This document shows, in pieces, positions 1,261-3,220 of a stretch of DNA of 64,000 nucleotides (position 1 is its first letter; every line of letters begins with the position of its first letter). The position numbers and the translations under genes are program-made. The notes under the pieces are model-generated. The model did no database searches. It was given only the letters and a program-made list of their open reading frames with translations, and was not told where the DNA came from. This stretch comes from Octopus vulgaris. Its lineage: Eukaryota. The DNA lies in the NCBI GenBank assembly GCA_951406725.2, contig OX597834.1, positions 27,280,001 through 27,344,000 on the forward strand, in the 5' to 3' direction.

Positions 1261-1511
1261 CGTTTGTCATGTTTGCAGTATAAGTGAGTTCGCATTACAC
1301 CAGCAGCCTTCCACTTTTTTTTTTCGTCCAAGGGATTTTTAAGCCAAATATTGTACACATATCTTTTACTCGTTTCAGTGTTTCAGTGTTTATACCTCGT
1401 TCAGAGATTTATTATTGTTTGCATACAATTTTTCGAGATCAGTGACGAAAAGTTACTGGAAAAACGATATAAGTATTTGCATTGGGACCCCTTTCATCGA
1501 AAACCGGTGAT

Positions 1512-2027
1512 AAGATGATACCGCCAACTGGACTCTCGAAGGAAAGTGAGGCATGTTTTCACTGCACGGTTGCAGTCATAAAAGAATGCATGTGGCGTAC
1601 AAGAATGGAAGGAGTCGCAATAGGATCCTTTGTCTCAGGCCCTGGCTTGCTCACTTACTTCAGATATCATCTGAAGAGCAAAATGGGGCTGGAAAAGAAG
1701 ACCTTACTACGAGGTGTGTATGAAAAAAGATGGAAGGAAGTGGCAAAAAAGGTGGGTGTCAGAAACCCAGTTTAACTAAGGATGGAGAAGAGGAAAGGAA
1801 AGCTGCGGGGCCTTATAGGTTGCCGGGGTTTAAAATATATCGGTAAGATTTCAATCTAATGTAATGTTATATTAGTCAATGCAAAGGACAATTTAAATAC
1901 AGTTTTTTTGTATAATGAATAATCCATATATTTTGGAAATTTTTAAACGAACCACTTAACTGTTTTTTGTGTGTATGTCCTGTATTGTTCTTCTATGTAC
2001 TGATTTTATAATCGTAATAAAGAATTA
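1512..2027 (+). mobile_element. 5'-truncated L1/Tx1-type LINE (ORF2 C-terminus + 3' UTR)
   Basis: Perfect 16-bp TSD ATCGAAAACCGGTGAT at 1496-1511 and 2028-2043. ORF ending at 1775 reads ...VAVIKECMWRTR...YEKRW, like the K-x-x-W-x-x-R...W tail of L1/Tx1 ORF2. AATAAA at 2016-2021. Confidence 0.72.
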
Positions 2028-2046
2028 ATCGAAAACCGGTGATTGT

Positions 2047-2091
2047 CGTACGCTGATGACAGGTCGAAACCTAGAAACTGCAGTCCGTGCG
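2047..2091 (+). ncRNA. Minimal type I hammerhead ribozyme motif
   Basis: Stem I CGTACG/CGTGCG; core CTGATGA (2053-2059); stem II AGGT-CGAA-ACCT closed by a non-canonical C.A; GAAAC-TGCA-GTC with palindromic loop. Predicted cleavage after C2085. Confidence 0.72.
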
Positions 2092-2296
2092 TATTACTTA
2101 GGTTGACGAGGGAAGGATGACCTCCCTTTGCAAATACCATAAGAGCACAGATAGTGTGCCTAAAGCCAGCTGGAGACGATGTTCTCCTGGGGTTACAAGC
2201 CACAGTAACACCCACCCTTAGTGGTTAGCCATATTGAGATGGCTAGTATACCTCACATTGGCGTGCAGTTACTGTTTATACCTCGTTCAGAGATTT

Positions 2297-2672
2297 AATG
2301 GCCCAGTGGTTAGGGCAGCGGACTCGCGGTCATAGGATCGTGGTTTCGATTTCCAAACCGGGCGTTGTGAGTGTTTATTGAGCGAAAACACCGAAAAGCT
2401 CCACGAGGCTCCGGCAGGGGATGGTGGTGATCCCTGCTGTACTCTTTCATCACAACTTTCTCTCACTCTTACTTCCTGTTTCTGTTGTACCTGTATTTCA
2501 AAGGGCCGGCCTTGTCACTCTCTGTGTGACGCTGAATATCCCCGAGAACTACGTTAAGGGTACACGTGTCTGTGGAGTGCTCAGCCACTTACACGTTAAT
2601 TTCACGAGCAGGCTGTTCCGTTGATTCGGATCAACCGGAACCCTCGTCGTCGTAACCGACGGAGTGCTTCCA
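2297..2672 (+). mobile_element. tRNA-derived SINE family A (OR-like), missing first ~10 nt
   Basis: A-box TGGCCCAGTGG, B-box GTTTCGATTTC; near-identical to copies at 24974, 27976, 37540, 57750. Confidence 0.92.
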
Positions 2673-3220
2673 TACCTCCATAGTGTTTCAGTCATTGGCT
2701 CATGCTGGGGCACCGGCTTGAAGGGTTCAGTCTAATTAATCGGCAATGTAACTCATACCCATAAATCACACTCGAAACAAAAACAAAGCAAAACAGACCT
2801 CTTCGGGCATCAATTGTTGCGTTGTCTGTATTTATGTCGAAAGATGAACTAGTTTCATTCAAAGACAGAGCTTTGTATGATACTTACATACTCTTTTCCA
2901 TCTCTCTCTCTCTCTTCCCCTCTCTCATTGCCTCTCTCTCTTTCTTTCTTTATCTCTCTCTGTCTCGCTCTATCTCTTTCTTTCAGTTATAAACAAGGGA
3001 CTCCTTATGACTGTTACCTCTTTTATCTCCCCTTCTGTCTGTCTCTCTTTCCCTCTCTGTTTCTGCCCTCTCTCTTTCCTTCATAGCTTCTATCTCTTCA
3101 CTCACTCTCGCTCTTTTCTGTCATGTTTTCATGATTCTTTCTTTCTTTCTTTCTTTCTTTCTTTTTTATTTGCTAGTGCTTTCTTACAGTTTTTTTTCCT
3201 CAGCTCAACACAACGACCTT

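Follow-up and report, generated by a model that had tools for sequence, protein, structure and literature searches.

The window analysed here comprises 64,000 nt of the Octopus vulgaris genome (assembly GCA_951406725.2, contig OX597834.1, positions 27,280,001 to 27,344,000 of the forward strand). Between positions 1377 and 2691 it contains a copy of a hammerhead ribozyme repeat which is interrupted by the 3' part of a LINE and followed by a SINE-like sequence (Table 1). Positions within the repeat are counted from the A of the sequence ATCG (1496 and 2028 in the window) as +1. The copy amounts to 379 nt, i.e. one 354-nt unit and 25 nt. The first-pass annotation had described it as a terminally redundant monomer of about 354 nt with a LINE inserted between target-site duplications, and this description holds. 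The terminal 25-mer occurs exactly twice in the window (1387-1411 and 2273-2297; none of 100 shuffled sequences gave two occurrences), the insert is flanked by a 16-nt repeat at 1496-1511 and 2028-2043, and the length of the monomer follows from 886-532=354; uninterrupted 354-nt units are found elsewhere, for example at L003:1376-1729. The copy slightly exceeds one monomer, and the 25-mer, which belongs to the element and not to flanking host DNA, marks where the copy runs on into the adjoining tandem unit. The unit is devoid of a credible ORF, the sole notable one being the C-terminus of the LINE. The four hairpins listed downstream of the ribozyme are present, and folding of 2044-2297 predicts them (z -2.35); the z score of an uninterrupted copy is -3.76.

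Table 1. Features of the interrupted repeat copy at 1377-2691 of the window.
Feature	Position	Strand	Remark
10-nt direct repeat, likely target duplication	1377-1386 and 2682-2691	+	Brackets repeat unit plus SINE
5' part of the repeat copy	1387-1511	+	Overrun, putative promoter segment and 16 nt from the putative +1
Overrun of the 3' end (25-mer)	1387-1411	+	
ATCAGTG, PSE-like motif	1438-1444	+	-58 from the LINE target; motif and distance as before U1/U2 genes
AT-rich TATA-like segment, putative role	1468-1473	+	-28 to -23; judged by sequence and similar position in families C and D
Upstream target-site duplication, 16 nt	1496-1511	+	A1496 is the putative +1
5'-truncated LINE of the L1/Tx1 group	1512-2027	+	Last ~515 nt of a 5.3-kb element
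LINE ORF2 stop codon	1773-1775	+	
LINE AATAAA	2016-2021	+	No poly(A) tail
Downstream target-site duplication	2028-2043	+	5' strand of the extended hammerhead stem I
Type I hammerhead	2047-2091	+	Predicted cleavage after C2085; loop 2 TCGAAA; palindromic stem III
Hairpin-rich 3' region	2092-2297	+	Common to families A, C, D and F
SINE-like high-copy repeat	2298-2681	+	Lacks first ~8 nt; abuts the unit directly

At the junction of the unit with the SINE both partners are incomplete: about 8 nt of the SINE and about 5-6 nt of the unit are missing, and a single 10-nt repeat flanks the two together. A template jump between both RNAs or a later insertion at this point may have produced this arrangement. 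Further upstream, on the minus strand at 952-1237, lies the 3' end of another L1/Tx1-type LINE family, which is 80% like the tail in L445 and is not located at a repeat target.

The type I hammerhead of the first-pass annotation was recovered with CTGATGA at 2053-2059, GAAA at 2074-2077, GTC at 2083-2085 and stem I at 2047-2052/2086-2091. The stem III region contains the palindrome ACTGCAGT at 2077-2084. It is the single match to a loose hammerhead core pattern in the window, which is weak evidence alone (10 of 100 shuffles had one), and Rfam at gathering scores returned no match in the window. A comparison of 24 chosen members of families A-H argues strongly for covariation of the hammerhead fold: both partners have changed in 17 of the 19 named pairs, and 91.6% of the cells are paired, a level reached by 0 of 500 shuffles, a count that is no probability since the rows are related. 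The C3-G8 pair covaries as well (CG in 12, UA in 11 and UG in 1 of the 24 rows). The pair 10.1-11.1 is a C.A mismatch in the window (2060/2073), which may lower the activity of the ribozyme, and is unpaired in 12 of the 24 family rows, the window included. In family D the stem III palindrome is imperfect; in the commonest forms of A, B, C, E and F it is perfect, in keeping with cleavage as a dimer, a mode established for retrozymes (PMC7229834). The hammerhead of the repeat is predicted to self-cleave after C2085.

A search of the 2.8-Gb genome with 2044-2297 as query yielded 3531 first-look candidates, 40 of which were scored; with queries from the divergent families the numbers were 2343 (D) and 2861 (C), and these sets overlap. 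The period is 354 nt in family A and about 357-364 nt in C and D, and tandems are partial. These data support the assignment of the unit to a non-coding type I hammerhead repeat of the retrozyme kind with thousands of candidate copies. The ends were compared in two samples of 29 copies each, which share 4 loci; the first was selected for lengths of at least 254 nt and the second is less biased. The 3' terminus is shared by 27/29 and 25/29 copies and lies near +274, about 217 nt past the cleavage site, and the 5' end varies; the copy in the window stops about 5-6 nt short of this usual end. The leftmost piece is inverted in 18/29 and 23/29 copies, and in 15 of the 18 and 18 of the 23 cases this inverted piece ends at +227 to +234 (window positions 2254-2261), which is about 43 nt before the direct end. 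Repeats of at least 7 nt flank 19/29 and 16/29 copies; some of them lie within (TA)n runs and are therefore weak evidence. The targets are AT-rich, and most copies in the less biased sample are only 96-240 nt long. An apparent pile-up of copy 5' ends at +1 in the first sample was dropped, as it was seen in 0/29 copies of the less biased one.

The first-pass annotation had taken the ends to be permuted relative to the cleavage site and had asked whether copies are tandem or circularly permuted with variable start points. The survey shows partial tandems but does not support free permutation, because the 3' end is constant and variation is confined to the 5' end, together with the inverted pieces. 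Partial tandems, an inverted 5' copy and a tail are reported for Penelope elements in a section of PMC8557442, and a section of PMC11167929 describes internal initiation downstream of the ribozyme. A fixed 3' end combined with 5' truncation and inverted pieces thus corresponds to the published Penelope signature, and no circle is needed to explain it. The unit is very probably a retrozyme mobilised by a Penelope protein. Two further arrangements of the repeat were seen in this genome: a tandem array with a period of 119 nt which includes the 3' 83 nt of the unit (C1:11168332-11169128), and a 62-nt piece in antisense orientation in the spacers of tandem U2 units (L421, L423, L427, L434-L438).

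The insertion pattern of the Penelope type might also arise if an autonomous Penelope element simply had the unit as its pseudo-LTR and left the short copies as truncated ends. An autonomous Penelope-like family of this genome does carry a hammerhead in its 3' repeats (L149, L141, L140, L155), with U3-A8 and a 4-nt palindromic stem III, and its core resembles those of families C and F. However, long copies of the unit run upstream into a further 354-nt unit and not into an ORF, and sampled PLE repeats share no sequence with the unit (blastn, nhmmer). Among the matches listed, no RT or GIY-YIG ORF is contiguous with the unit, and the upstream neighbour is another unit, an inverted piece, the LINE or unrelated DNA; constant attachment to a Penelope ORF, which the first-pass annotation had named as a refuting outcome, was not seen in the copies examined. 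No autonomous Penelope element sharing the sequence of the unit was detected in 30 of 148 scored GIY-YIG loci (6136 candidates) and four extended loci. The pseudo-LTR origin is accordingly very unlikely. Many GIY-YIG matches lie in open frames of 781 aa, which suggests recent activity of such elements.

A second alternative concerns the template. The copy in the window was proposed to derive directly from a 354-nt circular RNA around which the reverse transcriptase had run slightly more than once. Copies indeed cross the cleavage site and +1, one of them (L007) with a direct run of 670 nt, and for mussel retrozymes of 350-390 nt circles are documented in a part of PMC7229834. At common polymorphisms, tandem units within a copy differ at 0.19%, compared with 0.81% between copies, but this low variation fits a circle and a uniform tandem locus equally, and read-through of such a locus would give the identical pattern. 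The fixed 3' end and the predominance of short copies speak against the circle, as does the Anolis Penelope element, for which a section of PMC11167929 names unprocessed RNA as the dominant substrate in vitro. Contigs from six RNA-like sequencing runs cover the unit, with a depth profile shaped as in two large, probably DNA, runs. We give the circular template somewhat less than an even chance; it is compatible with the explanation developed below.

The first-pass annotation had treated the LINE as an incidental insert to be removed, an assessment we do not share, because its insertion is site-specific and the most unusual part of the locus. The 5.3-kb element (L062:3694-9016) encodes an ORF1 with a CCHC knuckle and an ORF2 with APE endonuclease, RT and zf-RVT domains, and both copies examined for ORFs are broken. 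The closest solved structures to its endonuclease are LINE-1 endonucleases, and the nearest named protein relative stems from Argonauta hians (48%). The LINE was assigned to the L1/Tx1 group by its domains. Using a LINE1 search pattern which lies within the tail and contains no host sequence, all 37 exact tail matches were found to be followed by the target; this was a hammerhead unit in 34 cases and the target 14-mer plus another LINE in 3. The host repeat families are 63-95% alike, and the insertion base is identical in all 37. Target duplications measure 14-16 nt (14 in most full-length insertions, 16 in the window) and follow the local host family. In full-length copies the LINE is preceded by the upstream half of the unit and flanked by duplications of 14-15 nt, and the truncated copies have variable 5' breakpoints. 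The LINEs show a mean pairwise identity of 96.8% versus 82.5% for their hosts and no significant correlation between the two (Mantel rho 0.14, p 0.09; n=33 of 41 rows, after removal of 6 that were tandem, short or of family D and 2 without a tail). Of the sister family LINE2 (82% in ORF2), 12/13 cases lie at the target, as do 25/28 of those copies of LINE3, a 1.7-kb family with ORF1 only, that possess a 3' end; the latter count is biased by about 16 nt of host sequence in the query. Off-target insertions comprise 1/13 LINE2, 3/28 LINE3, the U1-headed copy L444 described below and L227, in a host that lacks the upstream motif.

Orientation and junction are alike in nearly all LINE copies, as they would be if LINE and repeat formed one composite element that was amplified jointly, and L212 may be such a co-duplicated pair. 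Against joint amplification stand the near-identical LINEs in hosts down to 63% alike, the differing 5' breakpoints of truncated copies, the target 14-mer that separates tandem LINEs and the occurrence of the same lineage in U1/U2 genes. The host-matched duplications refute it, unless they are assembly artefacts, and this origin can hardly be correct. Host-matched duplications and near-identical LINEs in divergent hosts mean that the insertions occurred independently, and the LINE is site-specific.

Tails of sister LINEs also end exactly at +1 of snRNA genes, in 3 of 48 U2 and 1 of 42 U1 matches in this genome. At U2 the insertion is accompanied by a duplication of U2 nt 1-14; the insertions are not of the internal Keno type, as the tails end at U2 +1. 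Two of the U2 cases consist of the promoter, U2 nt 1-14, a second 14-mer of the form ATCG..GGTG, the LINE and the whole U2, and the third is a tandem of LINEs with a matching head (U2 14-mer and ATCG..GGTG 14-mer). Some LINEs thus carry host-derived heads of 14-17 nt. The off-target copy L444 opens with 17 nt of U1, and at L063, L066, L111 and L206 a family-A-like 5' duplicate is present in a host of family B or C. Such heads suggest that the LINE RNA started at +1 of the host. In a quick RT tree the snRNA-inserted and the repeat-targeting LINEs form one branch (SH-aLRT 99). A related LINE at L443:6777-7050 has three repeats of a U2-derived head at its 5' end.

The common feature of these sites appears to be a promoter. 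Upstream of the LINE site a motif RTCAGTG lies at -56 to -61 (42 scored 5' junctions; 3 rows unscored), and ATCAGT occurs at the same distance before 35/42 U1 and 42/48 U2 matches of this genome. The distance from the LINE site to the hammerhead core is 25 nt in families A, B, C and E and 32 nt in D and F; the site therefore keeps its distance to the upstream motif and not to the ribozyme core. With a PSE matrix built from 7 distinct U1/U2 types and anchored on the motif noticed by eye, the best match is found at -58, -59 and -55 in families A, C and D and at -58 in the window, but the matrix score alone is not significant, since a score this high occurs at some position in 25-67 of 500 shuffled units. 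The motif is kept at 31/31 scored LINE1 sites compared with 50/67 LINE-free sites (p 0.0007), a baseline in which at least 4 rows are misclassified and one is adjacent to a LINE. Because the motif also forms one side of a conserved hairpin, it might have been conserved for the RNA structure. There is nevertheless good reason to regard the LINE target base as the likely start site of an snRNA-type promoter.

Two other promoter elements were considered and rejected. The U6 element (-78 to -60 plus TATA, 7/20 U6 loci) is absent, by eye, upstream of the target, which speaks against a U6-type Pol III promoter; the element upstream of the U6 genes of this genome (L287, L289, L294-L298) looks different from the U1/U2 motif. 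An octamer reading of ATTTGCAT at 1476-1483 was abandoned, as this sequence is not conserved across the families and pairs with 2127-2137.

Taken together, we explain the locus as a non-coding hammerhead repeat, likely copied by a Penelope protein, in which a LINE lineage inserts at a single base, as it does at +1 of U1 and U2, this base being likely an snRNA-type start (probability about 0.7). RNA polymerase II would start at ATCG under control of an internal PSE-type promoter, and the tandem read-through RNA, or a circle derived from it, would be reverse-transcribed from a fixed internal site by the Penelope protein. The PSE-bound start site would in turn draw the LINE complex, whose endonuclease, with a loose preference for AT-N6-YYGG, would nick at +1 and cut the other strand about 14 nt further. 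The captured promoter could then transcribe the inserted LINE, whose RNA would begin with the first 14-17 nt of the host, and the displaced repeat or snRNA gene would lose its promoter.

For the choice of the site itself, tethering to the promoter complex appears to have a slightly better than even chance of being the main determinant. The targets in U1, U2 and families A, C and D share AT at positions 1-2 and YYGG at 9-12, so direct reading of the sequence contributes. In the extreme form of this view, the endonuclease would read DNA alone, as in Tx1L or Keno, with no role for the promoter; the site in the repeat resembles the 5' ends of U1 and U2 in having a pyrimidine before AT-N6-YYGG. A part of PMC4494074 attributes target choice mainly to the endonuclease, and the insertion at L227 lies in a host without the upstream motif. 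On the other hand, we infer that about 6 informative bases cannot yield 37/37 in 2.8 Gb; in addition, the sites in families F and G deviate from AT-N6-YYGG, and sites without the -58 motif are under-used. Reading of the DNA alone is therefore improbable. A wider extension of promoter tethering, to which we assign just short of an even chance, is that this L1/Tx1 lineage binds the promoter complex, homes to snRNA-type Pol II starts and takes over the promoter, with thousands of ribozyme repeats with internal U1/U2-type promoters serving as a spare landing field. Within such repeats the hammerhead, located 58 nt past the LINE end, could then clip the read-through RNA, and the LINE would acquire a 3' end devoid of a tail and able to base-pair with the following target.

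The hammerhead unit by itself adds one more ordinary, if new, member to a known class, and the novelty lies in the relationship between LINE and promoter, as a variant of target-specific retrotransposition. According to sections of PMC7229834 and of the preprint bioRxiv 10.64898/2026.07.22.740005, animal non-LTR retrozymes share with the octopus repeat the non-coding unit of 350-370 nt, the type I hammerhead with its loop 2 and bulged stem I, the partial tandems and the co-occurrence with Penelope-like elements. Compared with the retrozymes in these sections, the octopus copies are mostly dispersed, truncated and inverted instead of forming long arrays, and the repeat has several families with a broken 10.1-11.1 pair, an internal PSE-like motif and a site-specific LINE colonist; the words promoter, snRNA and Tx1 are absent from the preprint. 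With the Penelope-like elements covered in portions of PMC8557442 and PMC11167929 the repeat has in common the fixed 3' end past the ribozyme, 5' truncation, partial tandems, the inverted 5' piece, a tail, and AT-rich and (TA)n targets. It differs from them in that it lacks an ORF, its tail measures about 43 nt instead of 30-40, and a partner element was not found in the sample.

Target-specific LINEs of the Tx1 clade described in sections of PMC4494074 and PMC4640811 include Keno (U2), Tx1L (Tx1D) and Tx1-Mar (Mariner-N4). In contrast to these, the octopus LINE targets +1 of U1, U2 and the ribozyme repeats, i.e. three unrelated RNAs with one promoter layout. A passage of PMC4494074 further mentions U2, transposons, microsatellites and satellites as targets of the clade and U1/U2 heads in some elements, and a passage of PMC4640811, from 2015, names only Keno, Utopia, Dada-U1 and Dada-U6 as elements targeting snRNA genes. 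An internal snRNA-type Pol II promoter in a hammerhead repeat has been reported for newt satellite 2 (passage in PMC2220036); the octopus promoter is deduced from sequence only, and the newt passage mentions no targeting by a LINE. For the octopus, a repeat annotation counts 13 recent L1-Tx1 families, with no targets given in the section concerned (PMC13282606). A description of a LINE targeting retrozymes or snRNA +1 was not found in the literature listings searched; Repbase, Dfam and subscription papers (Kojima and Fujiwara 2004) were outside the scope of this search, and prior annotation is possible.

Through the LINE insertions, the probable start of transcription in the ribozyme repeats can be located and an snRNA-type promoter inside them is suggested, so that the way in which animal retrozymes attain their high expression becomes testable. 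If correct, our explanation would reveal a tethering mode for L1/Tx1 elements, which are otherwise thought to read DNA sequence, and would account for snRNA-derived LINE heads and for the survival of an snRNA-targeting element despite the small number of snRNA genes. The lineage could also serve as a possible model for promoter-directed gene insertion. Ty3 and the Dictyostelium TRE elements are tethered to promoter factors, and their position is set relative to the transcription start. Those elements use Pol III and tRNA genes, whereas the octopus lineage would use PSE-type starts.

Distant relatives of the LINE (27-37% identity) were found beside U1, U2, U5, 5S and tRNA genes. Near 80 such metagenome relatives no convincing hammerhead was detected, with 2 weak pattern matches in 425 kb and an Rfam run on 59 of the 80 loci. 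Relatives at L306, L307, L332, L322, L353 and L309, at L346, at L328 and at L360 lie in or beside U2, U5, 5S and tRNA genes. The insertion site of Keno lies inside U2, and the U2 genes beside L306, L307 and L332 are split, consistent with a Keno-type internal site. Relatives at U1 5' ends form a separate branch, the deep nodes of the quick tree not being settled. On the metagenome contigs L310, L317, L372 and L374 such relatives are located at the 5' end of U1 genes, and at L310 about 15 nt of U1 are duplicated on both sides.
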